A DNA stretch of 64,000 bases from a virus (IMGVR_UViG_3300001199_000001:5404-69403); one strand, 5' to 3'; positions 1,265-52,656 are shown, counted from the stretch's first letter. The notes: a model not told the origin generated them from the sequence alone. Translations and numbers: made by a program.

Positions 1265-1582
1265 ATGCAGCAGGTCACTTCAATGTACTGCCCTCTCACT
1301 CACGCGCCCTGCGAGTTCACTGGCTGCGTCAGCGGGTTGCGTTGCGCCAACGGCACAGGACCAACATTCATCGATACGTCGCCACCGACCTACCAACCAC
1401 CGCAGCAGATGGCGTCGTGGCTGTCGTCCGACGAAGTCCATCGCATGGTCATGACCGTCGCCGCCAAGCACGACGACTTCGCCTGGAAAGCCTGCGCCAT
1501 GGAAATCCTCGGCGAACTTGAAATCCTCTCAAGAGCCGCGCTCTTCAACACGCCGCGTCCGCCAGCAGACGGCTGCCTTTGA
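1265..1582 (+). CDS. hypothetical Cys-rich protein
   Basis: ATG 1265 after GAGGGCG RBS; N-terminal CPLTHAPCEFTGC. Confidence 0.45.
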   Translation: MQQVTSMYCPLTHAPCEFTGCVSGLRCANGTGPTFIDTSPPTYQPPQQMASWLSSDEVHRMVMTVAAKHDDFAWKACAMEILGELEILSRAALFNTPRPPADGCL

Positions 1583-1848
1583 TGGATAAACCGACCGACA
1601 CCGCTATCCGATTCCTGCGACGGATGAACGACTGGGAAATGGTGGCTTGCGATAAACCGTTAGAGCGGTGCTTTCTAGAAGCGCTTCTGCTTGATTTCAT
1701 CGAACTCAAGCGTAGTTCTAGCAGCGGCGTCCCGGTATTCGTCCTTAGTAATGAAGGGCGGGAATTCGTCATGGCGAATGGTGGTTTTGTAGATTACTGG
1801 GCAGAGGAAGATACTAGAAGAAGCCCGAAAGATCGTCCGGATGCCTAA
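1582..1848 (+). CDS. hypothetical protein
   Basis: ATG overlaps upstream TGA (TGATG). Confidence 0.5.
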   Translation: MDKPTDTAIRFLRRMNDWEMVACDKPLERCFLEALLLDFIELKRSSSSGVPVFVLSNEGREFVMANGGFVDYWAEEDTRRSPKDRPDA

Positions 1849-2125
1849 GTTCACGCCCGACAAAGAATGGGACTATTACGACGGCCCTCTCTTCGGCACC
1901 GCGTTGGACGAGACCGGCGCGGCCTGGGTCTACATCGTCGCCGGTAGTAAAGGGCGTAAATTCCTCGTCGTGCCGTGGATCGAAGGCGTCACCCACGTTC
2001 GGGAACTCATAAAACGCGCCGATAAGGCGTTCCTCTGGGACTTCGAGGGCGACGCTGTCGAGATCGCCGTTCCCGAACCCAGTGATTTCGCCGGAGAAGG
2101 TCTGCTGGTTGGGGATGTAGCCTGA
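1841..2125 (+). CDS. hypothetical protein
   Basis: 94 aa ORF, 8-nt overlap with upstream gene. Confidence 0.5.
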   Translation: MPKFTPDKEWDYYDGPLFGTALDETGAAWVYIVAGSKGRKFLVVPWIEGVTHVRELIKRADKAFLWDFEGDAVEIAVPEPSDFAGEGLLVGDVA

Positions 2126-2637
2126 TGCACATCACCACCTACACCTTCAACACCGTTCGCGGTGAAGAGCCCTACAAATGCACCTGCGGCAGTTGTGGTA
2201 AAACCCTTCGCCGCAGAGCCGTCGTCGAGAACACCATCAATCCCTATAACCGCACTGAGGACGGGACGCCAAAGACCCGTTCGCAAGTCTATTGGGACGC
2301 CCGCGCCGCCGCCAAGGTCGAAGCCGCGAGGCTGGAAGGGACCGAGACAATCTGCCGCGACTGCGAGGAGAAGCCGCGTCGCGATCTCCTCCTCGCCATG
2401 GCGGCGGCCCCTGAAACCGAATTCCCCAAGCCTGAGCGGTACTGGAATTCGGCGATGCACTATCTCGAAGATCGTAAGCAGGTCGAACAGCGTCACACCA
2501 AATGCGAGTGCGGGGCGCCGTGTTGCAGCCGTTGGCGTACATCGGAAGGTTATTTCATCACCGAACTCGGCAAGAAGCGCGCCGCCAAGTTCCAGGCGAA
2601 GCCCCAACTTGTAAGGAACGCTGATGAGTTGGCCTGA
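2125..2637 (+). CDS. Cys-rich zinc-finger-like protein
   Basis: CTCGSCGK...CRDCEE...CECGAPCC motifs; TGATG coupling to upstream gene. Confidence 0.55.
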   Translation: MHITTYTFNTVRGEEPYKCTCGSCGKTLRRRAVVENTINPYNRTEDGTPKTRSQVYWDARAAAKVEAARLEGTETICRDCEEKPRRDLLLAMAAAPETEFPKPERYWNSAMHYLEDRKQVEQRHTKCECGAPCCSRWRTSEGYFITELGKKRAAKFQAKPQLVRNADELA

Positions 2638-2701
2638 AGCTTTTATCGCCGTTGGATTTGGTCTGGTCTTCGCCGTGGCTATCGGAGCCTGCGCGCGATG
2701 A
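2624..2701 (+). CDS. 25-aa hydrophobic micro-protein (MSWPEAF family, copy 1)
   Basis: MSWPEAFIAVGFGLVFAVAIGACAR; ATGA overlap with next copy. Confidence 0.35.
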   Translation: MSWPEAFIAVGFGLVFAVAIGACAR

Positions 2702-2775
2702 GTTGGCTAGAAGTTGTCACCTTTGTCGGCTTTTCCGCCTCCGTCGTTTTTATCATGTGGTGCTCCAGCCTATGA
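2698..2775 (+). CDS. 25-aa hydrophobic micro-protein (copy 2)
   Basis: MSWLEVVTFVGFSASVVFIMWCSSL; ATGA overlaps at both ends. Confidence 0.35.
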   Translation: MSWLEVVTFVGFSASVVFIMWCSSL

Positions 2776-2849
2776 ACTGGCCTGAAGCTTTCGCCGCCGT
2801 AGGTATCGCCGCCTCGTTCGCCTTCATGATCTGGTGTGCATCTCGATGA
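2772..2849 (+). CDS. 25-aa hydrophobic micro-protein (copy 3)
   Basis: MNWPEAFAAVGIAASFAFMIWCASR; ATGA overlaps at both ends. Confidence 0.35.
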   Translation: MNWPEAFAAVGIAASFAFMIWCASR

Positions 2850-3274
2850 CCGAACCCGTCACCCTTGCAGATTGCCCGCCCGGCCTGTTCCGTTTCGGTG
2901 AAGGCCGAAGTGTCTCCCTCGGCTTCAAGACCGAATACGGTATGATCGGCGGCGAGGCAGTCGGACCCGACGTGGTCTTCAAGGTAACCAACTGGCCGGA
3001 CGCCTACGTTCTCGCCAGTGGTGAATTCTTCTGGGGCGGCGTTACGACTCACGAGGAACGCGCCGCGCTGATGGTCACGCCTATCGACCCTGATCACGTC
3101 GCCGATCTCTTCTCACACCGCGACTCATGGGGCGATATGCTGAACACGCTTGTCAGCCGCGTTGACATCGAATACATTCCTGACGACGACAAATCATACT
3201 GGCAACACGAACTGAAGGTTTTCAACCGCGTGTTCACCGCCATTACGGGAAAGGCATATGACCCAGAAAGATGA
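2846..3274 (+). CDS. hypothetical protein
   Basis: ATG 2846 overlaps stop of micro-ORF (ATGA); 142 aa. Confidence 0.55.
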   Translation: MTEPVTLADCPPGLFRFGEGRSVSLGFKTEYGMIGGEAVGPDVVFKVTNWPDAYVLASGEFFWGGVTTHEERAALMVTPIDPDHVADLFSHRDSWGDMLNTLVSRVDIEYIPDDDKSYWQHELKVFNRVFTAITGKAYDPER

Positions 3275-3455: not shown

Positions 3456-3836
3456 ATGGCGCGCTATCCCGGCTCTCGCTACGGGAAGGTCCACCCGAAA
3501 AACCGGGCGCTGGTCTTCAAGCGCGACGGACTGCGTTGCAAATATTGCGGGTGCACCTGCATCCACCCGGACCAAACCTACCAGGGGAACCCTCGGGCGG
3601 CGACTATCGACCATAAGATTCCCCGTTCGATGGAGGGCGATAACCGTCCCTCCAATCTCGTGACAGCTTGTTTTGACTGCAATAATAAGAAGGGAGGGGC
3701 TACGGATTTCGATCCGACAACCAAGTACCGCGACAATCCGCCCCTTGTCTCCGGCGAGGCCGCACGCGAACTCGCACGTCAAATCATCCGCCAGAACATC
3801 GATCACTACGCGACCTTGAACGGGAAGAAGGCTTAA
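3456..3836 (+). CDS. HNH endonuclease
   Basis: CKYCGC...IDHKIP...N...CFDCNNKKG motif (HNH, Cys4 plus His/Asn). Confidence 0.8.
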   Translation: MARYPGSRYGKVHPKNRALVFKRDGLRCKYCGCTCIHPDQTYQGNPRAATIDHKIPRSMEGDNRPSNLVTACFDCNNKKGGATDFDPTTKYRDNPPLVSGEAARELARQIIRQNIDHYATLNGKKA

Positions 3837-4051
3837 TGGACACCGGCTCGAAAATCTTTGTCACCTTCGTTCTGTTCTTCCTGAGCGCCACTGCTACGGT
3901 TAGCAACCTTCAGGTCGAATCACTGCTGCGTCTGGCGAAGGCTGCCGTCCATGACGAGGACGTGGCTAAGCCGTCGACTAACGATAGGGTGACCTGCTTT
4001 CTCCCCGTGGTCATCGCGGCTTTAGGTATTTTTGCGGTCTGGACTAACTAA
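3836..4051 (+). CDS. small membrane protein
   Basis: two hydrophobic helices; TAATG coupling to HNH gene. Confidence 0.5.
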   Translation: MDTGSKIFVTFVLFFLSATATVSNLQVESLLRLAKAAVHDEDVAKPSTNDRVTCFLPVVIAALGIFAVWTN

Positions 4052-5123: not shown

Positions 5124-5422
5124 TGCCCTATTCCCTCTACCGCACGCGTGACGGCGCCGGGGACAGCGGCGGCATGAGCATGGCTCTCATTCCGAACAAG
5201 AGTGCTGCCTCTTCCGATGACCCCGATAACCTGAAAATCGACTACGAGCACAACGCCCGTCCGCGCGTGGGCGTCGCCATGCGTGTCGGCAGCATCGCCG
5301 GGCGTACTTTCGCCAGTCAGGACTGGTGGCAGACGACGCTGATAACCGAGATCATCAGCGATACGCCTGAAGAAGTGCGGTTCAAGACCGGTAACTCTGA
5401 ATATGTCTGGAAGGTGTTGTGA
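5123..5422 (+). CDS. hypothetical protein (N-terminus MPYSLYR, paralogous start)
   Basis: AGGAAAGG RBS, TAATG coupling. Confidence 0.55.
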   Translation: MPYSLYRTRDGAGDSGGMSMALIPNKSAASSDDPDNLKIDYEHNARPRVGVAMRVGSIAGRTFASQDWWQTTLITEIISDTPEEVRFKTGNSEYVWKVL

Positions 5423-5763
5423 TGACTGAAGAAACCGCCGCCCATACCTACGTATTAACTGAGAGTTCCCGGATCACCAAGCGTCACATTTGCAAATCGT
5501 GGTCTCACTTCTTCCAGGCCATCAAGGCGGGCGATAAGAAGCACGATCTCCGCTTTGACGGGGATCGAGGCTTCTCCGTCGGCGATGAAGTCCTGCTGAG
5601 GGAATATGACAACATCAACGGTGTTTACACCGGAGAAGAGTGCCTAACCAAGGTCACCTATCTCACCTCGCGCGAGGTGCCTTGCGCCTTCTCAAGCGCC
5701 GTGCTGGATCGTGATTATGTTATCCTCAGTCTGGAGCCGATCAGGCAGCGCGGACGGTTCTAG
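5422..5763 (+). CDS. DUF3850 / ASCH-like (PUA-fold) domain protein
   Basis: HTYVLTES...FQAIKAGDKKHDLRFDGDRGFSVGDEVLLREYD..NGVYTGEE matches DUF3850 consensus. Confidence 0.7.
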   Translation: MTEETAAHTYVLTESSRITKRHICKSWSHFFQAIKAGDKKHDLRFDGDRGFSVGDEVLLREYDNINGVYTGEECLTKVTYLTSREVPCAFSSAVLDRDYVILSLEPIRQRGRF

Positions 5764-5951
5764 TGGGATACCGCCCGCCGACTGCCGAAGACCTCCGCGC
5801 CGATCTGCAAGACATGGGATGTCCTTGGCAGCTTACTGAACTCTTGATCGCCAACGTCATCATCGGTCTCTTCACCGTCGACGAAGTCATCCGACTCGCT
5901 GACAACCTCCGCCTCTCGTCAATTCAGGAACGTAAACTTGTCCAACCGTAA
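5763..5951 (+). CDS. hypothetical protein (GTG start)
   Basis: 62 aa ORF coupled to upstream stop. Confidence 0.4.
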   Translation: MGYRPPTAEDLRADLQDMGCPWQLTELLIANVIIGLFTVDEVIRLADNLRLSSIQERKLVQP

Positions 5952-6288
5952 CCTATATAAATTTAGCTGGGACTGCGGGCGCGCAGGCGAGGTCGACGGC
6001 CTGCTGACCGCTACCCCTGAGCAGATCGCAGGCATCGTCGGCAAGGGCGTCTACTTCGGTGAAATCCTCGGCAAACACTCCGAAGTGTATGGGCTAGCAC
6101 AGGCTGAAGAATTCACTCTCGTCACCGACGATCAAACCTTCATCGCCAAGATGGAGGAACTGTTCGCCCCACCTTTCGAAGACGGCGACGGCCCGAAATG
6201 CCTCTTCGGCTACAGCCCGTTTGACTATCTCGAAGAGATCGAGGACGACGAACCGACCGATGAAACCGACGAAGAGGTCGAAGATTGA
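5938..6288 (+). CDS. hypothetical acidic protein (TTG start in track; true start uncertain)
   Basis: 116 aa ORF with acidic C-terminus EEIEDDEPTDETDEEVED. Confidence 0.4.
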   Translation: MSNRNLYKFSWDCGRAGEVDGLLTATPEQIAGIVGKGVYFGEILGKHSEVYGLAQAEEFTLVTDDQTFIAKMEELFAPPFEDGDGPKCLFGYSPFDYLEEIEDDEPTDETDEEVED

Positions 6289-6371
6289 TCGTTGAAGCCT
6301 TGCGGCTTTTCGCAGCCGCCGCCTTCGTCGTCTTCGGACTGCTCGTACTCGCCACCGCTATCGCCAAATAG
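6285..6371 (+). CDS. possible 28-aa hydrophobic micro-protein (TTG start)
   Basis: MIVEALRLFAAAAFVVFGLLVLATAIAK; AAGAGGTCGAAGA RBS 7 nt upstream. Confidence 0.3.
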   Translation: MIVEALRLFAAAAFVVFGLLVLATAIAK

Positions 6372-6378
6372 ACATGAC

Positions 6379-6555
6379 GTGATCAAACGAACCGGCAACT
6401 TCAGAGTTGGCGACACAGTGCGGCGCCGGGGGTTCACGATCCCCGGCGTCATCACTGACATCACCGATTCGAGTTGGATCAAAATGCGCTGGGCGGTCAA
6501 AGCCAAGGGCCATGCCGAATACCACCACCCGGCTGAGTTGGAGAAGATCGAGTGA
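6379..6555 (+). CDS. hypothetical protein (GTG start; ORF open from 6292)
   Basis: VIKRTGNFRVGDTVRRRGFTIPGVITDI...; upstream part of the ORF is low complexity. Confidence 0.4.
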   Translation: MIKRTGNFRVGDTVRRRGFTIPGVITDITDSSWIKMRWAVKAKGHAEYHHPAELEKIE

Positions 6556-6635
6556 GCGAAGCCATCATTGTCGGTAGTCTCGTCTACATCTCCGGCCTCC
6601 TGACCCTGATCTATTTCAGACTGGGTGAAAAATGA
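6552..6635 (+). CDS. possible 27-aa hydrophobic micro-protein (GTG start)
   Basis: VSEAIIVGSLVYISGLLTLIYFRLGEK; overlapping start/stop at both ends. Confidence 0.3.
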   Translation: MSEAIIVGSLVYISGLLTLIYFRLGEK

Positions 6636-6865
6636 CCGCACGCATCCCCACCACCACCGTAGCCGAACTCAACACCCTCGACGACGCCGAGATCATCGAA
6701 GGCTACTGGGACGGTTTCAACGGCGAGCCCGCGCCCGGCGATAACCGATCCCTCAGGTATTGGCACGGTTGGCGCAACGGCGCTGTCGATGGTGGTTTCA
6801 TCGAGAAGGACGACGCTCAAGCTGCGTTAGCTAAGGAAGTCGTGGCGGGGTGGAAGAAAAAATGA
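6632..6865 (+). CDS. small protein with Rmf-like (ribosome modulation factor) motif, tentative
   Basis: EGYWDGFNGEP...NRSLRYWHGWRNGA resembles Rmf RGYQAGIAGRS...RSQWLGGWREA. Confidence 0.4.
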   Translation: MTARIPTTTVAELNTLDDAEIIEGYWDGFNGEPAPGDNRSLRYWHGWRNGAVDGGFIEKDDAQAALAKEVVAGWKKK

Positions 6866-7101
6866 ACAAAGCTCAAAGATGGCTGGACGAAAAAGCCGCC
6901 GACTATCCCTTCGGCCCTGTTGAAACCCCGATCAAGACTGTCGATCCACGACACTACGGCGCCGGCATGTGCTCGGCTGTGCTGCGCGACGGCGTGCGCA
7001 CGTGGCGGTTCAAGACTGAGAAGGGCATGGCCCGGTTCATCTACAACAACGAGGAACACATCCTTGTCAGCTTCTCCGCCGCCGCTGTTTCGCCGGACTG
7101 A
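6862..7101 (+). CDS. hypothetical protein
   Basis: GGTGGAAG RBS, ATGA coupling; alternative ATG at 6850. Confidence 0.5.
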   Translation: MNKAQRWLDEKAADYPFGPVETPIKTVDPRHYGAGMCSAVLRDGVRTWRFKTEKGMARFIYNNEEHILVSFSAAAVSPD

Positions 7102-7747
7102 ACAACCCAGCGTCATTCAGATCATTCCAAATTCTTTTCAACACGGAGCCGGTCTCCTGGTTAACGAAGATGGAAGAACGCGCGCCATGCGGACTCCCGA
7201 GTAAATAAGGACGCATCGTCTCCCAAGATTCAGCGTAGTCCGCATTTTTAGTACGAAGCAATTCGCGCTCCAACAGCAGCCGTCCAGCTACTTCAAGCGG
7301 AACGGTACCATCTGCTAATGGAGCGTGCAGCCATCCGCAATTAACGAGCACAGGAACGGCCATATGGTGATAAAATTTTACATCTAAAATCTGCGCCATG
7401 AAAACAGCAGCGGGACTGGTTATAGATTTTACCGATTCAATAACTCTCTCAGCATCTTCGATGTGATACGGGCAGGTTATAAAACCATTAGCAAAGTGAA
7501 CGGTATGATCTAATCCTTTGTACCCAGTGTCATGGCCCGGTTCCGTCACGTATGTGTCGGGTCCCTGCTTGCTGAGCAGTGGGTGCCATAAAGGGTACGA
7601 AGATACTACCGGCCCGAGATCAGTCACGATGTCACGGAGCATCCACTGACTTCTCTCTCGGTCAGCATTTTTTATGTCCCTTCCGATCAGGTAGTTCTCG
7701 ACACTCGCGTAGCCCGTTCTAGCTGCCTCATCCGCTCTAAAGGTCAT
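7067..7747 (-). CDS. hypothetical protein on opposite strand in low-GC segment (moron-like)
   Basis: 226 aa ORF; locally AT-rich relative to flanks; divergent from promoter at 7832. Confidence 0.55.
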   Translation of the reverse strand: MTFRADEAARTGYASVENYLIGRDIKNADRERSQWMLRDIVTDLGPVVSSYPLWHPLLSKQGPDTYVTEPGHDTGYKGLDHTVHFANGFITCPYHIEDAERVIESVKSITSPAAVFMAQILDVKFYHHMAVPVLVNCGWLHAPLADGTVPLEVAGRLLLERELLRTKNADYAESWETMRPYLLGSPHGARSSIFVNQETGSVLKRIWNDLNDAGLFSPAKQRRRRS

Positions 7748-7831
7748 CTTCGTTCCTCATAAAATCTGTTCCTAACGCATAAAACATTCATTCTGTGCGT
7801 AAGTCAACGATTCCATGTTCCGACAAAAGTG

Positions 7832-7860
7832 TTGACGGCTGACATCGAATGTCATAGGAT
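7832..7860 (+). promoter_or_regulatory. sigma70-like promoter TTGACG-N17-TAGGAT, 6 nt before ATG (leaderless mRNA)
   Basis: TTGACG 7832-7837, TAGGAT 7855-7860, ATG 7867. Confidence 0.55.
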
Positions 7861-7866
7861 CGGCAA

Positions 7867-8352
7867 ATGCTGATCCTCTACACCCTGGTCCGGACCGACA
7901 TGCCCTCCATGGGTTACGGCAAGGGCGCGGCCCAAGCCCAGCACGCCGCAACCGCCTTCTCTGAATTCGAAATGCTGCGCCCGCTGGAAGCTGATGGCGA
8001 GATCGACGCCGACGTAATGGAATGGCGCAAGTCCACCAACCAAGGCTTCGGCACCAAGCTGACCCTCGATTGCTCCGACAAAGAGACGATGATCAAGGTC
8101 GTCGCCGCCGCACGCAAGCTCGGCTTCCCGGCGCGTGTGGTCACCGACCCGACCTACCCCTACCTCGTATCCGACGAAATCGTCCCGCTGATCGATAAGG
8201 CCGTCCACACCGACGATCCGAAATCCATCGGCGGCGGGCAGTCGATCTGCTTCCGTGAAGAGAAGACCTGCGCCTACGTCTTCGGTCTGAAGGACGATGT
8301 CAGCATCCTGCTGTCGCGGTTCAAACTACTGCCGAATGAGCCTGTTGCATGA
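7867..8352 (+). CDS. PTH2-family peptidyl-tRNA hydrolase-like protein
   Basis: LVRTDMPSMGYGKGAAQAQHAA matches PTH2 VVRxDLxMxxGKxAAQxxHAA. Confidence 0.6.
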   Translation: MLILYTLVRTDMPSMGYGKGAAQAQHAATAFSEFEMLRPLEADGEIDADVMEWRKSTNQGFGTKLTLDCSDKETMIKVVAAARKLGFPARVVTDPTYPYLVSDEIVPLIDKAVHTDDPKSIGGGQSICFREEKTCAYVFGLKDDVSILLSRFKLLPNEPVA

Positions 8353-8738
8353 CCACTAAAAACCCCCACGAGCGCACGATCATGCTCGCCACCGTCGCTG
8401 TAATGTTCATCGGCATCCTGAGCGCGGTGACCATCTCCAGTATCAATGCGGGTCGAACGGCGGCGATGCAGGAGACCATGACCGCGCGCAACGAGACCAA
8501 ACTGGCCAAGGCCTCGTTGGAGGTCTGCCAGAAAAACATCGTCTCGCTAGAGACCGCCGTCGTCTATCAAACAGATATTGTCCAAGTCCTGAAAGCCGAG
8601 CGCGATCACGCCCAAAGCCTCGTGGCGCAAAGCCAAGCAGCGGTTCGCGCCCAACTACGCGGTCCACAGGGCCTCGACGAAGGCGCCGTCGATAAGCTGC
8701 TCGTGTCGACCCTGAACCGCAAACCCCAGTGCCTGTGA
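8349..8738 (+). CDS. membrane-anchored coiled-coil protein
   Basis: N-terminal TM helix then coiled coil; ATGA coupling. Confidence 0.5.
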   Translation: MTTKNPHERTIMLATVAVMFIGILSAVTISSINAGRTAAMQETMTARNETKLAKASLEVCQKNIVSLETAVVYQTDIVQVLKAERDHAQSLVAQSQAAVRAQLRGPQGLDEGAVDKLLVSTLNRKPQCL

Positions 8739-8739
8739 C

Positions 8740-9021
8740 ATGAGTAAGGCCGTCCCCTTCAAGCTGGATAAGGTCTGCGACGGCTGCGGCGCTCGGGGTG
8801 CTTACGACTTTATGGGCGACTACTATTGTCAGGCTTGTACGGACAAAGCGTTCGACGAGCAGGCACGTGAGGAGTGGATCGATGTCACCACGATCTTTGA
8901 CCACCCCTATGAAATCGAAATGAAAGCGTACAGCGATCCGCCGCGCTTCCGTCACCGCACGGACGATGGCGACGGTTTCAGTACTGCTTGGATCGACGGA
9001 AAACCAAAAAGGGACGACTAA
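8740..9021 (+). CDS. zinc-ribbon protein
   Basis: CDGCGARG...CQAC. Confidence 0.5.
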   Translation: MSKAVPFKLDKVCDGCGARGAYDFMGDYYCQACTDKAFDEQAREEWIDVTTIFDHPYEIEMKAYSDPPRFRHRTDDGDGFSTAWIDGKPKRDD

Positions 9022-9221
9022 TGGGCTGGTCCAGAGGCAGTGCACTCCTGAGCGATATCGTCGGCGTGATCGAACAAAACGTCACGACACACGTCAACAA
9101 AGTCGCTATCTATAAGGAACTGATCGGCATCTTTGAGGACGCAGACTGCGACACCATAGATGAGGTGCTGAGCGATCACAGCGATTCCGCCGCCTTTCGA
9201 GAGGCATACAACCATGATTAA
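9021..9221 (+). CDS. hypothetical protein
   Basis: TAATG coupling; 66 aa. Confidence 0.45.
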   Translation: MGWSRGSALLSDIVGVIEQNVTTHVNKVAIYKELIGIFEDADCDTIDEVLSDHSDSAAFREAYNHD

Positions 9222-9516
9222 CTTCGATTTCAAACGTGGCCCCATCGACCTCGGATTCCTTCCGATGTTCCTCAACCCGAACAGCCCTGACCCCGCCACG
9301 GTGCAACTTGATCGCAGCTACGCGCACGGCGGTGGCTGGCGTCCGCAAAAGGGTTTCGTCATGCTCCCCAACGGCTCCCTACGCTATCCGGGCGACGAAC
9401 CGATGCCGGTGCTGGCGGAAGCGAAGCTCGGCGACGAGATCATCCGCGTCTACGACTTCAGTTATATCGCCGTCGTCCAACCGGACGGCTCCTTTGAAGC
9501 GTGCAGGATGGACTGA
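9214..9516 (+). CDS. hypothetical protein
   Basis: 100 aa ORF. Confidence 0.5.
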   Translation: MINFDFKRGPIDLGFLPMFLNPNSPDPATVQLDRSYAHGGGWRPQKGFVMLPNGSLRYPGDEPMPVLAEAKLGDEIIRVYDFSYIAVVQPDGSFEACRMD

Positions 9517-9728
9517 TGCCTAGAAGAACCTTCACGAACCCGGCCGGAAAAGCCGACGCCCTGCGCATCCAAGCCTTAAGTCGAGCCTACGACAAGCAGG
9601 CCGAAGTCCTGAAGGACGTGTTCGAGGCCGGTAGAAAGGCTAAGGCTGCTGGCAAGCCGATCTCCGACTGCCCGCGCGTCGCCGACCTTGAGGTGTCGAG
9701 AACATGGCGGGATGGGTATCTCAGTTAA
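9516..9728 (+). CDS. hypothetical protein
   Basis: ATG overlaps upstream TGA; last plus-strand early gene, convergent with minus block. Confidence 0.45.
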   Translation: MPRRTFTNPAGKADALRIQALSRAYDKQAEVLKDVFEAGRKAKAAGKPISDCPRVADLEVSRTWRDGYLS

Positions 9729-10071
9729 GGTCAGACTTGGGTTTAGGATACCGCTCGATTTCTTTGACATCCGAAAACGCTTCTTCGAATAAGAACACGA
9801 GCCTTCGCGCTTCAACATCCGCCGCATCCAACTCTTCCTGCGTGTAAGGCGGCGGCAGAACGATGTCTCCAGTCTCGGTGATGTAGAAGATCAGTCCGTC
9901 GACCGGCGGAACTGGAAACTTGCCGATGTCGATCTCGCCCCACATCTCGTCGCGGTCTTTGTCGTCATCGGTGTAAAACATCCGTACCGTCACCACCCGC
10001 CGCGTCCCCGGCTCGTCGTCCCAGACGTAGCCTTCGATAGGATAGTCTCGCGGATTGAAGGGCTCGGTCAT
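9721..10071 (-). CDS. hypothetical protein
   Basis: 116 aa ORF. Confidence 0.5.
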   Translation of the reverse strand: MTEPFNPRDYPIEGYVWDDEPGTRRVVTVRMFYTDDDKDRDEMWGEIDIGKFPVPPVDGLIFYITETGDIVLPPPYTQEELDAADVEARRLVFLFEEAFSDVKEIERYPKPKSDLN

Positions 10072-10172
10072 CAGATTTCCGGATGCGTGCGGAGGATATT
10101 AATCACGGTTAAGCCGATGCAGCCGAGCGCTGCTAATATCGCTATCGCCAGAAGCAACTTGTGCCGTTTCAT
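10071..10172 (-). CDS. 33-aa membrane micro-protein
   Basis: MKRHKLLLAIAILAALGCIGLTVINILRTHPEI; ATGA overlaps at both ends. Confidence 0.4.
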   Translation of the reverse strand: MKRHKLLLAIAILAALGCIGLTVINILRTHPEI

Positions 10173-10366
10173 CACGCGTCTCTGATGATCTTGTAGTGGG
10201 TCGGCTCTTCGTCGACCTCGACCTTATGATCGTCCTCGGCGTGGCCGATCTGCCAGAAATCACCGTTCCAGTGGCCGACCATCACCAGCCCGGATTCTTC
10301 GTTCAAGAGAAGACGCGTACTGCCGTCTTTGGCTGCGTCGTCGATCATGATGAAATCTTCGGTCAA
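10172..10366 (-). CDS. hypothetical acidic protein
   Basis: 64 aa ORF. Confidence 0.45.
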   Translation of the reverse strand: MTEDFIMIDDAAKDGSTRLLLNEESGLVMVGHWNGDFWQIGHAEDDHKVEVDEEPTHYKIIRDA

Positions 10367-10476
10367 AAGCCGAACTCCCGCAAAATCGTGAACCTGTTAA
10401 CCGCGACTAGCAAATAAACTAGGGCCACAAGACAAGCGCTCACGGAGACCGTCAGAAAAATGTACTCTTTCATCAT
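10363..10476 (-). CDS. 37-aa membrane micro-protein
   Basis: MMKEYIFLTVSVSACLVALVYLLVAVNRFTILREFGF; ATGA overlaps at both ends. Confidence 0.4.
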   Translation of the reverse strand: MMKEYIFLTVSVSACLVALVYLLVAVNRFTILREFGF

Positions 10477-10739
10477 CACCGTCTCCCCGGCAGAACATAA
10501 TGCCCGCCGTCCTTGCTCCGGCGCCAGCGCTGCGGCGGCGTCCACTTCGGATCGCGCTTAGCGAATCCCCCTGATTTCAACTGCCAGTCAAATGACAGGC
10601 GCTTAGCCGTGCGCGGACGCTCCCAGCCGTCACCCTCAACCTCGATCCATGACCCGAACGGCGCGGTCTCGATGGGCCGCCACTCGTTCGCTTGATCATG
10701 GGCGAGATAAAACGGCTCTTTAGGCTGTTCGTCTCTCAT
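10476..10739 (-). CDS. hypothetical protein (Trp/Arg rich)
   Basis: 87 aa ORF. Confidence 0.45.
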   Translation of the reverse strand: MRDEQPKEPFYLAHDQANEWRPIETAPFGSWIEVEGDGWERPRTAKRLSFDWQLKSGGFAKRDPKWTPPQRWRRSKDGGHYVLPGRR

Positions 10740-10751
10740 TACTCGAAATCC

Positions 10752-10898
10752 CTAAACCGTTATACGTCCGATGGCCCACAGCAGCGCTGCGACGAACCAC
10801 AGACCCCAGGCGACCTGCTCGGCATGACGAGCCCCCAGGCTGGCGATAAACTTGGCGATGAAACCAAGCAGAACCAGTAGTGTGAAAAGAAGGGCCAT
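10752..10898 (-). CDS. 48-aa two-helix membrane protein
   Basis: MALLFTLLVLLGFIAKFIASLGARHAEQVAWGLWFVAALLWAIGRITV; below the track length cut-off. Confidence 0.4.
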   Translation of the reverse strand: MALLFTLLVLLGFIAKFIASLGARHAEQVAWGLWFVAALLWAIGRITV

Positions 10899-10957
10899 TA
10901 TCGTTCCTTAGGGTTGGTAGTCACAGGTCCAGATTTCCAAACCATTTAGGTGGGTAG

Positions 10958-11167
10958 TCACCGGTCCAGATTTCCGGTCGGCGTGCGTAGCGACTTCCAT
11001 ACTTCCTTATTGCAGGTCGGGCAGTTGATGACGACCGCATTGCCGTCTCGCTGGTCGTAAACGACCCGGCCTTCGCGCTGCTCGAATTCAAAGATCGTAC
11101 GACAATTGGAACAGTCGACCCGGTAGGTGATCTCTTCGGGTAGCGTGCCCTGTTGGATGATCTTCAT
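10958..11167 (-). CDS. zinc-ribbon protein
   Basis: CSNC...CPTC. Confidence 0.5.
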   Translation of the reverse strand: MKIIQQGTLPEEITYRVDCSNCRTIFEFEQREGRVVYDQRDGNAVVINCPTCNKEVWKSLRTPTGNLDR

Positions 11168-17677: not shown

Positions 17678-18034
17678 CTAAATTGTCAAACTAGCACGGG
17701 CTTGCGCAGCGATAGCCCTAAAGGCTAGGGGGTCTGCCGCCAGATCAGCCATGATCTTGCGGTCAATTGCGACGCCCGCCTTTTCCAGGCCATGCACCAG
17801 CGTGGAATAGGTCAGACCCTCCAGTCGCGCAGCCGCGTTTATCCGTTGAATCCACAGGGCGCGGAAACTGCGCTTCTTGTTGCGGCGGTCACGATAAGCA
17901 TATTGCCCGGCCTTATCGACCGCAGCCTTGGCGGTACGGATTGTGCTCTTGCGCCGCCCTGAGAAGCCCTTGGCCTGCTCCAGAACGTTCTTGTGACGGG
18001 CGTGAGACGTGACGCCCCGTTTGACACGAGCCAT
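17678..18034 (-). CDS. rplT: 50S ribosomal protein L20 (bL20)
   Basis: [30 protein letters not shown]...; AAAGGA RBS. Confidence 0.85.
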
Positions 18035-18058: not shown

Positions 18059-18256
18059 TTAAGCGTAAGGCATGTAGGTTTTGATCTTCGCCGTGTCGGC
18101 GTCGCTCATCACCTTCGTGCCTCGGTTCTGACGGATGTATTTGCCGTTATGGCTAATCAAGCGGTGGCGCTTACCGGCGACACCTGCTTTGATCTTGCCC
18201 GCAGCCGTGATCTTGAAGCGCTTTTTGGCGCCTGACTTAGTCTTCAGTTTCGGCAT
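18059..18256 (-). CDS. rpmI: 50S ribosomal protein L35 (bL35)
   Basis: [23 protein letters not shown]...; AGAGGA RBS. Confidence 0.85.
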
Positions 18257-20149: not shown

Positions 20150-20533
20150 TTATCCCGATGTCAACACATTATCACGTCCCCGCATCAACCGCATGAGCAC
20201 CGCGCGCAGGGCTGATTGCTCGTAAGGCTTCTGAAGGAAGGGCAGGGTCTGATCCGGGACATTCTCCTTGTTATAACCGGTTGACAGCACAAAGGGGATT
20301 CCACGTCCTTGGAGTGCAGTAGCTACCGGGCAGCTATACACTCCGTTCAGGTTGAGGTCGAGAACCGCCATGTCTATCGACTCACTCTCGATGATCGCGA
20401 GAGCCTGCTCGACGCGTGCTGCGGGACCTATGACCTTGCAACCAAGGTCGGCTAACATGTCTTCCAGCACCCAGGAAACCATGAGTTCGTCCTCGACTAC
20501 GAGGACGCGGCGACCCAACAGCGGGCTAGTCAT
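20150..20533 (-). CDS. single-domain response regulator (CheY-like receiver, LovR-like)
   Basis: RVLVVEDELMV...VIGPA...IDMAVLDLNL...PFVLSTGY receiver motifs. Confidence 0.8.
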   Translation of the reverse strand: MTSPLLGRRVLVVEDELMVSWVLEDMLADLGCKVIGPAARVEQALAIIESESIDMAVLDLNLNGVYSCPVATALQGRGIPFVLSTGYNKENVPDQTLPFLQKPYEQSALRAVLMRLMRGRDNVLTSG

Positions 20534-21602
20534 TGGGGCTACGTCCATGACCCTTCGGAAGGGGCATAACGACTTCACACGAAACGCCGGATGGATCGTA
20601 ATCCAATCGGACTTCGCCGTTCAACTCTTGGGCAAGGCCGCGCTCGATAAGGCGAGAACCGAAGCCTTTGCGGGTGGGCTGCACGAGGCGCGGTCCGCCG
20701 CTTTCCTTCCACAGTAGTCGCATCCATTCGCCATCGGCTCGACATTCAACGCCCCAGGACATAGTAACCCGCCCGTCGTCTACCGAGAGTGCGCCATATT
20801 TTGCCGAGTTGGTGGCTAGCTCATGGAAAACCATGGCCAGAGACAAAGCCGCCTTAGGCCGCAAGCGGATATCGGCCTTGGCCTCTAAAGTGAAGCGTTC
20901 CTTTCGCTGATCGTGTAAGCCAAACGGTTCTAGGATAAGGTCGACCACGTTACGCAGCACCACACGGCCCCAACTCGCGCTGCCAAGCAGGCTATGGGTT
21001 TTCGACAACGCGAGGATGCGACCTTCAAACAGTGCAAGAACTTTGCCATCTACGATGCCCCGTAAAGTCTGCCTAGCTATCGCCAGCACGGTTGCGAGCG
21101 TGTTCTGGGTGCGATGGTCTAGTTCATTCAGAAGAAAGCGCAGACGATCTTGCTCCTTCTTGTGGCGCGTAGTGTCCACAAAGGAGGCGAAATGTTGAAC
21201 GACCTCCCCCACTTCGTTCTTGACAGGACTAATGAACACGGTGGCCCACAATACGCTGCCGTCCTTGCGACAATAGCGTATCTCCGTGTCGTGGCCTTCG
21301 CCGTCGTCACGCTCAAAATCGACTTTGATAGCCTCCAACATATCTGGTGCGCCCCCCGGCGCCATCAAGGAGTTAAAGGCCTGCCCAAGTACTTCGCCTC
21401 GACTGTATCCAGTGAGAGCCAAAAAGCTGTCATTAGCGAAAATGAGCGGGTTTCCCGCTGCCTTGGCGTCCGTGAACACCATAGCCATTCGAGTCTGCTC
21501 TGCGGCCACGACAAACGGTCCAAGCTCATCCTTGAACTCTTGAACAACGGCTTCTGCTTTGGCCTGCGCGTTGGCGGGCGTCTTGTGTTGTTCTTCATCC
21601 AT
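20526..21602 (-). CDS. LOV-type PAS domain / HWE (HisKA_2) histidine kinase, LovK-like, lacking the photoactive cysteine
   Basis: GNPLIFANDSFLALTGYSRGEVLGQAFNSLMAP (LOV core with GRNCRFLQG replaced), ...YCRKDGS..W; ELDHRTQNTLATVLAIARQT HWE H-box; C-terminal ATPase. Confidence 0.75.
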   Translation of the reverse strand: MDEEQHKTPANAQAKAEAVVQEFKDELGPFVVAAEQTRMAMVFTDAKAAGNPLIFANDSFLALTGYSRGEVLGQAFNSLMAPGGAPDMLEAIKVDFERDDGEGHDTEIRYCRKDGSVLWATVFISPVKNEVGEVVQHFASFVDTTRHKKEQDRLRFLLNELDHRTQNTLATVLAIARQTLRGIVDGKVLALFEGRILALSKTHSLLGSASWGRVVLRNVVDLILEPFGLHDQRKERFTLEAKADIRLRPKAALSLAMVFHELATNSAKYGALSVDDGRVTMSWGVECRADGEWMRLLWKESGGPRLVQPTRKGFGSRLIERGLAQELNGEVRLDYDPSGVSCEVVMPLPKGHGRSPND

Positions 21603-27450: not shown

Positions 27451-28518
27451 TTACCTGACAGCAGTCAACACATTTGGGTTGGGCGCGGTGCGTCTCTGTG
27501 CGTTCGTGTAAGTGAACGGCGCTGTGACTTTTTGCGGATCGCGCGTGACGGGATAGCCCGTAATTTCGGTCGGCCATTGGGCAACCTTATATACCCGCAT
27601 CGAGCGGCGTGTACGACCCGCGACGAAGTCGTTCCAAGCCGTACTAATCAACCCGAACCAAGTGTCCACGTTGAGTGACGAACCGCGACGCAGATTGAGC
27701 GTAACATTGCGCAGCGCTAGGATCGGACTGCCCTTTTCGAGTTCCGCCCCCGACGAAAGCTTGGCAAGAAATTCCGACCACTTGTCGGCATACTCGCCGG
27801 ATGCTGTCGCCATCCAGCCGACCGCGCTGAGCGCCGACATCGAGACTGGCGGTCTGGCGGTATCGATTTTGGAGACGATCTGCTGGATTTCGGGGTGTTG
27901 GCGTACGAAATCGAGCATTTCGTTCTTACTGATCGTATTGTTCCGTGTAGGCAGCAACTGGTTCCACGTGATGATCAGGCGGACCGCAGCGGCGACCTTG
28001 GTCGCTTGGACGATGCCAGCGCCGCTGAGCGTGTCGGAGGCGCTGCGCTTGGCGCCTTGGTCCAGGGTGGAGAAAGTGTCTTCTTCGAGACCGCGAACGA
28101 CCATCATGCGAACCGGGGTCTTGGCGAGGAGGACGGCGGTGAGGCGGTGTTGACCGTTCAGGAGGCGACCGTTGCTAGCAAATTGAATGGGCTCGCCATT
28201 CATCTTCCACATGCCCATGCTCATTTGCCGGGCGAGAGATTCGACATGTTTGCGTCGAATAGGGCGGTTGCCCCAATTGGTGGTCGACAGATACTGATCG
28301 GCGACCTCCGGAGTGATAATTTCGTCCGACCACGAAAGGTGGGATGCGACGTGAACTGATTTGGACTTCGCAGCGGCCATGCCGTTACCTCCTGAGTTGA
28401 TGGTTTCTAACTCATAGTCGCCTTCGTTTCCCGTTGTCAACTCATTAGTGACAGCCTCGATGAACTGAGATTGGGGAGGCTTGGTCCGCCTCGAAAAGAT
28501 CAAATCCATTAGACTCAT
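27451..28518 (-). CDS. ParB-like nuclease domain (ParBc/DUF262-like) protein
   Basis: NGRLLNGQHRLTAV motif resembles DGQ(Q/H)R of ParB/DUF262. Confidence 0.5.
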   Translation of the reverse strand: MSLMDLIFSRRTKPPQSQFIEAVTNELTTGNEGDYELETINSGGNGMAAAKSKSVHVASHLSWSDEIITPEVADQYLSTTNWGNRPIRRKHVESLARQMSMGMWKMNGEPIQFASNGRLLNGQHRLTAVLLAKTPVRMMVVRGLEEDTFSTLDQGAKRSASDTLSGAGIVQATKVAAAVRLIITWNQLLPTRNNTISKNEMLDFVRQHPEIQQIVSKIDTARPPVSMSALSAVGWMATASGEYADKWSEFLAKLSSGAELEKGSPILALRNVTLNLRRGSSLNVDTWFGLISTAWNDFVAGRTRRSMRVYKVAQWPTEITGYPVTRDPQKVTAPFTYTNAQRRTAPNPNVLTAVR

Positions 28519-29630
28519 ACAACCACCCCTCCGTTGGCTGGGTTTTCCCGCACGACGCCGGTCCGTTCGTTGGGCGGGAAACAGAGAGAATAATGCAGAC
28601 CGGTGAAACGATATTCGAGGCGGGCGATGCCGTTGACCTCATTGGGTAGGCCCCTGGTCAAAAGACGCGTTCCGAAGGATGTTTTTTTAGGCCGTTCGAC
28701 ATACGGTCCGCCGCTCTCGTCCCAGCCCAGGCAAATCTCATTTTCACTGACGTGGACGCTGAGATTGACTGCGCCGTTGTATTCCGCGCTCCACGCCCCG
28801 TGCTTGGCGGCGTTAGTGGCCAATTCATGTAAGGCCATGCCAATCGACACCGCGTAATTCGGGTGAAGTTCGATATCCTTGCCGACCACCGTATAAACCT
28901 TGCCGTAAGGTGCGAGCAGGCGGTCGACCAACTCCCGGAAAAACACATGCGACCAGTGATGCTCGACTAGCAGATTATGGGTTTGCGAGAGCGCCATGAG
29001 ACGCTTCTCGAACGTCATCGCGAACTGCTCCTTCGACTCCGCCGCGCGCAAGGTCTGCTGGGCGATGGACTGCACCGACGCGAGTGTGTTCTTGACGCGG
29101 TGGTTCAGTTCGTCGATCAGCAGTTGCTGCCTACGATCATGCTCCTTCAGCGCAATCATCTCGTCCGATTTCTGCTGTAGCGCTAGGTAGGCGGCTTCCC
29201 GGTCACGCAACGCTTCGTCCTTCGCTCGAATCTGGTTTTCGAGCATTGAGGGAGAGGGTATCGCAAGCAGTTGCGGCGTCAAGGGCATCAACATTAATGC
29301 CGTAATCACTGACACTGAGGCGGTGACAGCCTTGAGCAAGGCCTCCACTCCGTAGTGTGGGTTCCACAGCGTCCAGATGGAAAAGAAGTGGGTCGTGCCG
29401 CAGAGCAGGATGAACGACACGAACAGCCAGCCCATCCACCCAAAGCTCAAACCCCTCCGCTTCAATAAGAAATAACCGATGGCGAACGGAATCGAATAAT
29501 ACGCCAGCCCGATAAGCACGTCGGAAGCGACATGGACAATGAGGATGTCAGGGCGCCATAATAAGCAGAGCCCGTGGGGATTTAGAAACTCGGAATCGAA
29601 GAAATATCGAATCCGTTCAATGATATTCAT
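28515..29630 (-). CDS. membrane-anchored HWE (HisKA_2) sensor histidine kinase
   Basis: N-terminal multi-TM domain; ELNHRVKNTLASVQSIAQQT H-box; C-terminal ATPase. Confidence 0.75.
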   Translation of the reverse strand: MNIIERIRYFFDSEFLNPHGLCLLWRPDILIVHVASDVLIGLAYYSIPFAIGYFLLKRRGLSFGWMGWLFVSFILLCGTTHFFSIWTLWNPHYGVEALLKAVTASVSVITALMLMPLTPQLLAIPSPSMLENQIRAKDEALRDREAAYLALQQKSDEMIALKEHDRRQQLLIDELNHRVKNTLASVQSIAQQTLRAAESKEQFAMTFEKRLMALSQTHNLLVEHHWSHVFFRELVDRLLAPYGKVYTVVGKDIELHPNYAVSIGMALHELATNAAKHGAWSAEYNGAVNLSVHVSENEICLGWDESGGPYVERPKKTSFGTRLLTRGLPNEVNGIARLEYRFTGLHYSLCFPPNERTGVVRENPANGGVVV

Positions 29631-31211: not shown

Positions 31212-32683
31212 TTATGCGTTCGCCCCGTTTCCGTTCGGCTTGCGCTTGGCCGGGACGACGGTCTCATTCGGGTGGAGCGTACCCACCGCCTTAGTGACGA
31301 TGGCCTGCCCCTCAGGTGTCTGTGCAAGGCCGGTTAGCATGGAGCCGATAGCCTGACCGCCCTTCGACGAGAACAGATCAGTGATCTTGCCGATGCCGGT
31401 CTGCACGTCGCCGCCGTTGACGATTACCTTCACGTCCGCCGCCTTGATGGCTTCGGCTTGCGCCACCCCGACGACTTGGTTGGCCTTCACCTGCTCGACA
31501 CTGACCAGATAGGTTTGATAGCCGGTGTTGCCGCCGATCTCACGGGCCAATTCCATCTGTGGCGCCACTTCAGCCAGTCCCTTGGCTTTCACGGCTTCAG
31601 CTTCGGCGAGGCCTCGCGCCTGAATGCCTTGAGCTTCCTTGATGGATTCTTCGAGGTTGCCTTCGGCGATCAAAATGGTCTGGTTTTTCTCGCCTTCGGC
31701 TTCGATTCGACGGCGTTCACGAACCGCTTCGGCGTCCACAACGGCGACATTCTTGTCCTGCTCGGCCTTAACCTCAGCCACCGCCTTGTCTTGCTGCGCC
31801 TTGATTTCAGCTACCTGCCGGTTGATCTCGGCGGCCCGTGTCATCTCGACCTGCTTGACCGCGTAATCTTTCTCGGCGGTGGTGCGGGATTCTTCGAGAA
31901 CCTGTTGCTCAGACCGCTGCTTCGCGATGCCGACGGCCTGCTCTTGCTGCGCGGTACGCTCGCCGACCTGTTGTGCGGCTTCCTGTCCAGCCAGATCGAT
32001 CTGACGGCGAGCTTCGATTTCACGCTCTTCGGCTTCGCGATGGTTTTCCGCAACAGCGACGCGGCTTTCCTTCTCGATGCGGGATTTCTCTTTGGCCATG
32101 ATGTTCTCAATGACCTTCGAGCCGTTTGAGTCACGGATGTCCATGAACTCGATGGTCTTGACCGTCTGAACGCCCCATTCCTTCAACTGTCCGTCGACTT
32201 CGGAAGTGAAACGCTCACCGAGCGACGAGCGGTCATGCATGATCGTCTCAAGCTGAGACTGTCCAAGCACGGTCCGGACGGCACCTTGCAGCACGGCGTG
32301 AAGCTGTTCAGTCAGTTCGGCGAAGTTGGCGACGCGGTGCGCGGCTACGTCCGAATCAGCGATCCGGAAGAAGGCCATGACATCGACGCGAAACGGCAGG
32401 CGTCCCTGGTCATAAGCTTCGTAATCCTTCAAGCCGACGTTGAAGACGCTCTCAGGAAGCTCGACCTGCGTGACGCCGAAGAACGGAACGAAACCGGGGA
32501 TTTCATAATAGACGTTCCCGGCTGTCCGGCCCTTGCCGTAGGAAGTCGTTGCTCGGCGTGATTGAACGATGTGCACCATATTGGTTGGTACGACCCGGCG
32601 CAGCACCATCATGATGATGGTTACGAGGACAACGAGGCCAAGCGCCACGCCTCCCCCGATCATTGCAATAATACTACCCATGA
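31212..32683 (-). CDS. SPFH/band-7 (flotillin-like, YqiK-type) protein with long coiled coil
   Basis: N-terminal TM, SPFH core, EA-rich coiled coil; GGAG RBS before ATG 32683. Confidence 0.7.
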
Positions 32684-34021: not shown

Positions 34022-34423
34022 TTAGGAGCGAAACGTCCCCAGGCCCATGCCCTTGGCGATCTCGCTACGGCGTTTCGCATAGTTAGGGGCGGTCATGGGA
34101 TAATCGGACGGGAGACCCCACTTACGGCGATAAGCTTCCGGCGACATGTCGTAACGCGCGCGGAGGTGACGCTTCAGCATTGTCAGCCGCTTGCCGTCCT
34201 CCAGGCAGACGATATAGTCAGGTTGAATCGACCGCCTGATCGAGACGGCGGGCTCTTTCTGTTCAACAGGCGCTTCATCAGGGGCGTCGAGGGTGGCCAT
34301 AGTGCGATGCACCGAGCGGATCAGTTCCGGTATAGTTTCCACGGGGACCTGATTATTCGCCACGTATGCCGCGACGATATCGGCGCTCATGTGGATAATG
34401 TCTTCACTGCTGTCCGTAGTCAT
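34022..34423 (-). CDS. Ros/MucR-family transcriptional regulator with degenerate zinc finger
   Basis: IVCLEDGKRLTMLKRHLRARYDMSPEAYRRKWGLPSDYPMTAPNYAKRRSEIAKGMGLG vs Ros CLECG..FK.LKRHL..H..TPEEYR.KW.LP.DYPMVAP.YA..RS.LAK.MGLG. Confidence 0.8.
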   Translation of the reverse strand: MTTDSSEDIIHMSADIVAAYVANNQVPVETIPELIRSVHRTMATLDAPDEAPVEQKEPAVSIRRSIQPDYIVCLEDGKRLTMLKRHLRARYDMSPEAYRRKWGLPSDYPMTAPNYAKRRSEIAKGMGLGTFRS

Positions 34424-43098: not shown

Positions 43099-43273
43099 CA
43101 GGGGAAACGAAAGTGAAAAGCAAGGCTAAAGCAAATGGCAAAGAGCAAATTGCAAATAACAACGAGCAAAATCCTAAAAACCGACGATCAATAAGCAAAG
43201 CCTCCACGCATTTCTGCGCTTCATCGGTAATTATCGCCGGAGCAAAGGATTTGAGCGCCTGAGCGCTAGCCAT
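43085..43273 (-). CDS. small membrane protein
   Basis: 62 aa hydrophobic ORF. Confidence 0.4.
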   Translation of the reverse strand: MASAQALKSFAPAIITDEAQKCVEALLIDRRFLGFCSLLFAICSLPFALALLFTFVSPDDAA

Positions 43274-52647: not shown

Positions 52648-52656
52648 AAATAAAAG

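Follow-up and report, generated by a model that had tools for sequence, protein, structure and literature searches.

Clustered, very short hydrophobic open reading frames in accessory operons of a distant phiCbK-like phage: probable genes for membrane peptides

We analysed five very short open reading frames (ORFs), c1 to c5, in a 64,000-nucleotide (nt) stretch of the virus IMGVR_UViG_3300001199_000001 (positions 5404–69403), referred to below as the window and numbered from its first letter. The gene map of the window comprises 139 called genes and was taken from the assembly's own gene calls (Logan contig SRR2043728_3232, 70.9 kb). Window proteins are also present on a 278,859-bp JGI contig. 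The portal protein (48447–50246) is 58–59% identical to the portals of Caulobacter phiCbK-like giant siphoviruses, and nucleotide searches found no nucleotide-level relative of the window in the phage collection; on these comparisons we assign the window to a distant phiCbK-like jumbo phage. A first-pass annotation had described the five ORFs as genes for tiny membrane peptides, and all were found at the coordinates, and with the start codons and lengths, claimed for them:

6285–6371, plus strand: c1, TTG start, 28 aa, MIVEALRLFAAAAFVVFGLLVLATAIAK; predicted transmembrane (TM) helix at residues ~8–26
6552–6635, plus strand: c2, GTG start, 27 aa, MSEAIIVGSLVYISGLLTLIYFRLGEK; predicted TM helix at residues ~4–22
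10071–10172, minus strand: c3, ATG start, 33 aa, MKRHKLLLAIAILAALGCIGLTVINILRTHPEI; basic N-terminus MKRHK, then a 22-residue hydrophobic stretch
10363–10476, minus strand: c4, ATG start, 37 aa, MMKEYIFLTVSVSACLVALVYLLVAVNRFTILREFGF; begins MMKEY, one predicted TM helix
10752–10898, minus strand: c5, ATG start, 48 aa, MALLFTLLVLLGFIAKFIASLGARHAEQVAWGLWFVAALLWAIGRITV; two-TM helical hairpin in a structure model

Each of the five is co-directional with both flanking genes and occupies the gap between them, and all are at most 50 residues long (27, 28, 33, 37 and 48 aa). Seven of the eight junctions of c1–c4 are 1- or 4-nt stop/start overlaps. c2 is joined by GTGA upstream and ATGA downstream, c3 by TGATG at both ends, and c4 by TGATG upstream and TTGA downstream; c1 overlaps the stop of gene 5938–6288 through TTGA and is followed by a 7-nt spacer to the GTG at 6379. 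c5 has no overlaps, with spacers of 59 nt upstream and 12 nt downstream. The description of the ORFs as often overlapping at both ends therefore holds for c2–c4 and for half of c1, and does not hold for c5. The overlap types of c1–c4 are those used by the phage's called genes, whose co-directional neighbours show 25 one-nt, 22 four-nt and 15 eight-nt overlaps.

Hydrophobicity was scored as the best 17-residue Kyte–Doolittle window (KD17). As a null set we used 537 ORFs of 20–60 aa lying out of frame inside called genes. In addition, the interior of each ORF was subjected to 20,000 dinucleotide-preserving shuffles, scored for frames that were open and no less hydrophobic than the ORF itself. 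The KD17 values of c1–c5 are 2.29–2.68 (c1 2.59, c2 2.29, c3 2.68, c4 2.67), so that by this score and, for c5, by the hairpin model, each contains a segment able to span the bilayer. Among the null ORFs, a KD17 of 1.6 was reached by 15 of 537, 2.0 by two and 2.4 by none. Frames of the length of c1–c5 stayed open in the shuffles with a probability of 0.2–0.59. The probability of an open frame with equal hydrophobicity was <5e-5 for c1 and c3, 2e-4 for c2, 3.5e-4 for c4 and 1.5e-3 for c5. An open frame alone is not rare at the 57% GC of the window; the hydrophobicity is the exceptional part, and since the shuffle probability was at most 1.5e-3 for every ORF, composition alone is insufficient to explain it.

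The charges flanking the hydrophobic segments of c1–c5 are modest. The +3 N-terminus of c3 suggests an N-in orientation, and the basic C-terminal flanks of c1, c2 and c4 suggest C-in; c4 ends in an amphipathic basic tail (NRFTILREFGF). Residues 14–18 of c3 (A-A-L-G-C, with C18 following the basic N-terminus) fit a lipobox by eye, and c3 was considered as an outer-membrane spanin or lipoprotein. This was rejected: the hydrophobic run goes on for nine residues past the cysteine, the mature peptide would have 16 aa, and the gene map has no inner-membrane spanin-like gene adjoining c3. A plain TM helix is more likely.

A census of the whole window listed 14 ORFs of ≤65 aa above a KD17 of 2.15. The credible tiny TM ORFs number eight, namely c1–c5 and a triplet of shorter ORFs; all lie within 2.6–10.9 kb, in gaps and on the coding strand. 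The third member of the triplet stands outside the census list, its frame having been taken as a 65-aa ORF (2652–2849) that scores below the cut-off. The remaining seven census ORFs either overlap called genes in another frame or combine a TTG start with little or no ribosome-binding motif, and the census gave no convincing tiny TM ORF in the remaining 53 kb of the window. The triplet is arranged as follows:

2624–2701, 2698–2775 and 2772–2849, plus strand: three paralogous 25-aa TM peptides, joined by ATGA overlaps, not called

Pairwise z-scores within the triplet are 4.1–10.7, and the proportion of synonymous differences (pS 0.63–0.73) exceeds that of non-synonymous differences (pN 0.29–0.45). 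As judged from these comparisons, the triplet is within-genome evidence that the phage maintains such tiny genes. In a permutation test, c1–c5 showed no sequence similarity to one another or to the triplet. An N-terminal motif M-S-x-x-E-A, seemingly shared by c1, c2 and the triplet, was likewise rejected by permutation tests. The mutual dissimilarity of c1–c5 makes them a physico-chemical category, not a family. The earlier idea of a systematic class of micro-proteins thus stands as far as shared chemistry goes (hydrophobic, TM-like); it does not stand as common ancestry, and it applies to one accessory region of ~8 kb only. Two called small genes with hydrophobic segments, 3836–4051 and 5763–5951 (both plus strand), add to the local concentration of membrane proteins at 2.6–10.9 kb. 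The 71-aa called protein has two hydrophobic segments and the 62-aa called protein a borderline one (KD19 1.81).

Coding potential was assessed with a codon model trained on called genes of ≥100 codons and expressed as a log-likelihood ratio (LLR) in bits per codon. Gene windows of the same size scored 0.32 ± 0.19 and null ORFs −0.22 ± 0.25. Scores were +0.41 for c1 (equalled by 0.6% of null ORFs), +0.54 for c2 (0 of 537) and +0.28 for c5 (1.7%), and the mean LLR of c1–c5 was higher than in all 20,000 of 20,000 resamples of five null ORFs. Shine–Dalgarno-like motifs of ≥4 nt at a spacing of 6–8 nt, found before 60% of called genes vs 18% of random sites, precede c1 (GAGGT, 6 nt upstream), c2 (GGAG, 8 nt), c4 (GGAG, 6 nt) and c5 (TAAGGA, a ribosome-binding site of its own). 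c3, c4 and c5 are among the independently made gene calls of the assembly, which contain nothing in 6289–6631 or 2638–2845. The shortest product that this caller reports in the window has 33 aa, consistent with the 90-nt minimum of Prodigal-type callers. The ORFs of 25–28 aa are thus missing from the calls because they fall below this length; the absence of a 58-aa gene between c1 and c2 (see below) is not covered by this explanation.

For c5, conservation of the frame, which the first-pass annotation had proposed as a check, was found in protein collections. When 1.84 billion cluster representatives were scanned in full with HMMER, 20 matched at E ≤ 1e-3, 19 of them 44–53 aa long and aligned end to end. 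A profile search with the c5 family recovered at least 78 proteins of 46–61 aa, with E-values down to 5e-20. c5 itself aligns with the family profile end to end (E = 2.4e-17) and has all the conserved residues (F5, V9, G12, F13, A30, W31, W34, A37 and W41). Pairs of c5 homologues have pS 0.52–0.85 and pN 0.23–0.39, and the resulting pN/pS of 0.34–0.51 (uncorrected) indicates purifying selection on the predicted c5 protein. An AlphaFold2 model based on the family alignment is a helical hairpin (pLDDT 87.5) with helices at residues 2–20 and 26–47 and almost no C-terminal tail. Against Pfam and PHROGs, the family members produced nothing above noise, and when viral structures were searched with the model, nothing but generic hairpins turned up, none of them at E ≤ 0.001.

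A scan of 185,579 species-representative genomes for the c5-family motif found no copies, and every c5-homologue context examined is a phage contig, in which the position of the gene varies. The homologue directly follows a large gene or the portal gene (contigs L025 and L034), lies directly upstream of terminase genes (L026 and L028), precedes a NUDIX gene (L030) or follows a 987-aa ORF without Pfam match, a putative tail-fibre protein gene (L042). In contig L041 (IMGVR_UViG_3300005534_000013) the c5-family gene, 1699–1899, is part of a membrane-protein cluster (1286–3161) and lies two genes upstream of an Rv2525c-like glycoside hydrolase. The cluster has a 123-aa protein with a C-terminal TM segment upstream, and a Gly-rich tiny TM ORF, a 127-aa multi-TM protein and the glycoside hydrolase downstream. 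It is a probable lysis cassette, and offers a weak lead towards a lysis-related c5 family.

In the window, two 27-nt direct repeats (10912–10938 and 10949–10975), 93% identical and 37 nt apart, are located upstream of c5. One covers the stop codon of the upstream 69-aa gene and the other lies in the spacer before c5. The arrangement looks like a tandem duplication of the 3' end of the 69-aa gene, and is possibly a scar of the arrival of c5.

Taken together, we consider it probable, at roughly seven in ten, that c1–c5 truly code for proteins, as very short genes for membrane peptides, probably coupled, within accessory operons of a jumbo phage distantly related to phiCbK. The status of a real micro-gene is certain for c5, very likely for c1 and c2, likely for c4 and, for c3, the weakest on codon score and ribosome-binding motif, probable. 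The proposal of translationally coupled TM micro-proteins is upheld in that the ORFs are most probably genuine genes, not spacers; the coupling would not extend to c5.

We infer translation of c1–c4, membrane insertion and any function, the function by analogy. c1–c4 would each encode a single TM helix (27–37 aa) and c5 a two-helix hairpin (48 aa), expressed from two polycistronic accessory-gene operons. Translation of c1–c4 would probably proceed by termination–reinitiation coupling through the 1- or 4-nt stop/start overlaps, and that of c5 probably from its own ribosome-binding site. The products would most likely insert into the host inner membrane. There, by analogy, they would most likely serve as accessory factors, binding or perturbing either envelope proteins of the host or the membrane as such. 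Host take-over, the exclusion of competing phages and lysis timing are candidate roles, all of them functions that phage accessory membrane proteins often mediate.

Several observations weigh against this interpretation. The LLR of c4 is +0.17 (null percentile 6.5%) and that of c3 +0.11 (11%), scores which are compatible with the gene and the null distribution alike, and c3 is preceded by a mere 3-nt motif (GAG). Non-ATG starts occur in c1, the 58-aa gene and c2, vs 16 of the 139 called genes. The operon neighbours give no functional hint in annotation or PHROG matches. No homologue of c1–c4 was found: c3 and c4 are singletons in the protein collection, and c1, being shorter than the shortest product of the pipeline, is not in the collection. 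A search with c1–c4 and the triplet as one concatenated query returned nothing at E ≤ 10; it also missed c3 and c4, which are in the database, and is uninformative, not negative. Against Pfam and PHROGs, c1–c5 and the triplet gave sub-threshold noise only. Scans of IMG/VR anchored on the 87-aa, 116-aa, 77-aa and 69-aa genes and on c5 found no syntenic locus, and in a tblastn search with 19 concatenated regional proteins the 116-aa gene was the sole match. With the gene for peptidyl-tRNA hydrolase 2 (PTH2, 7867–8352) as anchor, homologues of 28–45% identity were found in IMG/VR and JGI metagenomes, with no shared neighbours.

Five other explanations were weighed. The first would make more of the cluster than separate genes. 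The region at 2.6–10.9 kb might be a nursery that turns spacers into membrane micro-genes, or the eight peptides might be a joint membrane-remodelling set. As a nursery, it could combine young, lineage-specific genes (c1–c4), a triplet expanding by tandem duplication and a horizontally spreading descendant (c5); as a remodelling set, it could make c5 the definition of a minimal (48-aa) lysis or exclusion factor. We regard this as unlikely.

Secondly, c5 and possibly other peptides could be lysis-timing proteins, such as a minimal holin, antiholin or pinholin-like factor. This draws on the L041 cluster, in which the Rv2525c-like protein near the c5 homologue is a possible endolysin, and on the position immediately upstream of terminase genes in L026 and L028, many lambdoid phages keeping their lysis cassette at that position. 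Two TM helices are also found in class II holins. However, no endolysin-like gene lies near c5 in the window and none flanks any of c1–c5, so that the gene is not placed in a lysis cassette beside an endolysin here, and the proximity to a glycoside-hydrolase-like gene is confined to one homologue (L041). On other contigs, where the homologue comes after the portal gene or before a NUDIX gene, its neighbours include no lysis gene. Moreover, c5 as modelled lacks a charged C-terminal tail and, at 48 aa, is shorter than class II holin and pinholin examples, which have about 65–95 aa. A lysis role is therefore a doubtful reading of these peptides.

Thirdly, the act of translating the mini-ORFs may matter more than the peptides, for ribosome relay or stoichiometry, or for tethering the transcript to the membrane via TM-coding U-rich mRNA or the nascent chain. 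Reinitiating ribosomes must indeed cross c2, c3 and c4, which overlap both an upstream stop and a downstream start, and the orphan status of c1–c4 would be expected if the exact sequence were unconstrained. A pure relay, however, needs no hydrophobicity, yet all the ORFs are strongly TM-like; most genes of the phage couple directly, with no relay, and c5 and the triplet are conserved at the protein level. We find this improbable.

Another, quite improbable reading is that all five ORFs, or c3 and c4 if not the others, are open by chance and lie in untranslated spacers of a GC-rich, stop-poor genome. Frames of this length often stay open by chance, as the shuffles show, and the ambiguous codon statistics of c3 and c4 and their lack of detectable homologues would fit. 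Two further hydrophobic gap ORFs (43098–43169 and 50259–50333), with TTG starts and little or no ribosome-binding motif, do look chance-like. Against this, the joint probability of an open frame and equal hydrophobicity is ≤3.5e-4 for c3 and c4 at their own composition, both have stop/start overlaps of real-gene types at either end, each of the eight tiny TM ORFs is on the strand of its neighbours, and c5 is conserved.

Lastly, the gaps could belong to other genes, as the first-pass annotation had allowed for in naming alternative starts of the flanking genes as a possible explanation. The genes concerned are:

5938–6288, plus strand: 116-aa gene upstream of c1; phrog_5848, E = 7e-28, residues 5–105
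6379–6555, plus strand: 58-aa soluble gene between c1 and c2, GTG start, not called; phrog_1690
6632–6865, plus strand: 77-aa gene downstream of c2; phrog_4460, E = 2.6e-12, residues 9–71 on profile positions 2–63
9721–10071, minus strand: 116-aa gene downstream of c3, called; 10071 is the most upstream start
10172–10366, minus strand: 64-aa gene between c4 and c3, called; the TTG at 10366 is the most upstream start
10476–10739, minus strand: 87-aa gene between c5 and c4, called; orphan
10958–11167, minus strand: 69-aa four-cysteine gene (CxxC...CxxC), the first gene of the minus-strand operon; phrog_2834, E = 4e-13

For c2–c5, the frames of the flanking genes have no start codon further upstream than those listed (6632, 10071, 10366 and 10739), and therefore no alternative start covers these gaps. 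In the gap of c1, one extension is possible: ORF 6292–6555 could carry the 58-aa gene across it. However, the added stretch (6292–6381) scores −0.46 bits per codon vs +0.41 in the frame of c1, and is P/S-rich and of low complexity. The extension to the TTG at 6292 is moreover unneeded, because phrog_1690 (E = 5e-5) aligns from residue 7 of the 58-aa form (residues 7–57 on profile positions 2–56 of 63). This form has an LLR of +0.37 per codon. PHROG profiles also fix the ends of the flanking 116-aa (5938–6288), 77-aa and 69-aa genes. Across 6200–6700, a sliding codon score switches frame from the 116-aa gene to c1, the 58-aa gene, c2 and the 77-aa gene at the predicted boundaries.

On the opposite strand, a 138-aa ORF (6225–6641) runs across c1, the 58-aa gene and c2, with positive scores antisense to the TM segments. 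It averages 0.06 bits per codon, being negative or near zero over much of the stretch that matches PHROGs on the plus strand, and was rejected as a gene, its positive score lying mainly opposite TM codons. c1 as a frameshift fusion to the upstream gene was also considered and rejected. No Rfam family, tRNA or notable terminator was found in the gaps of c1–c5. Ownership of the gaps by other genes is thus very improbable. The 58-aa gene has no recognisable ribosome-binding site, and a three-codon mini-ORF (ATG-ACG-TGA) overlaps its start.

Taken as genes for membrane peptides, c1–c5 can be compared with known systems. A survey of phages reportedly recognised, by conservation, ORFs of ≤50 codons missed by standard callers, many of them predicted to be TM or secreted. 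The ORFs described here are likewise tiny phage ORFs, c1 and c2 among them missed by the caller, but only c5 shows the required conservation, c1–c4 being orphans that such an approach would not report. The survey in question is the global one of phage small genes by Fremin, Bhatt & Kyrpides (2022, Cell Rep), as cited in PMC12856327.

In bacteria, small membrane proteins work through binding to larger membrane complexes; examples are AcrZ (49 aa), MgrB (47 aa), MgtS (31 aa), KdpF (29 aa) and CydX (37 aa) (PMC12648545; PMC10903887). The peptides studied here resemble these proteins in size range and in a single TM helix with short charged flanks. They differ in showing no sequence similarity to them, and in being phage-encoded and operon-coupled, whereas the bacterial proteins are chromosomal and often separately regulated. 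Phage moron or accessory inner-membrane proteins that block superinfection, such as HK97 gp15 and T4 Imm, have about 80–170 aa. Like morons, c1–c5 are small (predicted) phage inner-membrane proteins outside the core of structural and replication genes, and c5-family genes occupy varied positions in unrelated phages; unlike HK97 gp15 and T4 Imm, to which no homology is known, c1–c5 are shorter.

Type I toxin peptides of prophages include Hok, TisB, BsrG, TxpA and YonT (PMC12648545). These too are hydrophobic single-helix peptides of 20–60 aa on mobile elements. They are expressed from a promoter of their own, with a structured leader and an antisense RNA, whereas c1–c4 are embedded in operons with stop/start overlaps. 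A promoter scan gave 8 sites, not in excess of shuffles (4.4 ± 2.2), none of them placed as an antisense promoter, and there was no Rfam match to a type I toxin or antitoxin RNA. In phiCbK, the nearest named relative, gp097 (34 aa as annotated; NC_019405.1 207009–207113) is a tiny hydrophobic ORF without sequence similarity to c1–c5. It is the one comparable ORF in 50 kb of the phiCbK accessory region, vs eight in 8 kb here; clustering of this kind is therefore no common feature of the group.

That phages encode small hydrophobic proteins which gene callers miss is well established, and current understanding is thus unchanged. Specific to this phage are the local density (eight in 8 kb), the expansion of the triplet and a c5 family without Pfam or PHROG entry. 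The case illustrates an annotation blind spot in large phages, in which genes of this size are systematically lost: the public pipeline missed c1, c2, the triplet and the PHROG-matching 58-aa gene. The c5 family offers a tractable handle: its predicted small membrane protein is encoded, in phages unrelated to one another, next to genes for packaging or lysis. The orphan peptides, if translated, would be candidate new modulators of alphaproteobacterial envelope functions. For an alphaproteobacterial host there is a hint in two HWE-type histidine kinases, one with PAS domains, and a response regulator (20526–21602, 20150–20533 and 28515–29630, minus strand), and in a Ros/MucR-family protein (34022–34423); HWE kinases and a Ros/MucR regulator are, we presume, typical of Alphaproteobacteria. 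Precomputed annotation, from which the Ros/MucR assignment comes, also gives a Band_7 protein at 31212–32681.

The plus-strand accessory operon spans at least 5419 to 7101. The 116-aa gene 5938–6288 has homologues in ICP1 and other phages. The minus-strand accessory operon runs from 11167 to 9721, and three of its seven genes are tiny TM ORFs; two promoter-like sites at 11269–11212, minus strand, are consensus matches only. In this operon, the 87-aa gene 10476–10739 has itself as sole match among 5.8 billion proteins. A 226-aa gene without family match (7067–7747, minus strand) forms an island of GC 0.50 vs 0.57 for the window; it is convergent with a 79-aa gene and overlaps the 3' end of that gene by 35 nt. 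It has the look of a recent acquisition, inserted so that it separates two plus-strand operons. At 8349–8738, plus strand, a 129-aa protein has one N-terminal TM helix followed, as judged by eye, by a long helical or coiled-coil-like segment. Inner-membrane spanins have this architecture; neither a lipoprotein partner nor an endolysin lies nearby, and there is no Pfam or PHROG match. In the structural module, two long stretches are without called genes (52648–53428, 781 nt, and 50247–50655, 409 nt); neither contains a tRNA or matches Rfam. Adjacent genes at 17678–18034 and 18059–18256, minus strand, encode homologues of the ribosomal proteins L20 and L35, with Pfam Ribosomal_L20 and Ribosomal_L35p in the precomputed annotation, and this phage pair resembles the bacterial rpmI–rplT.

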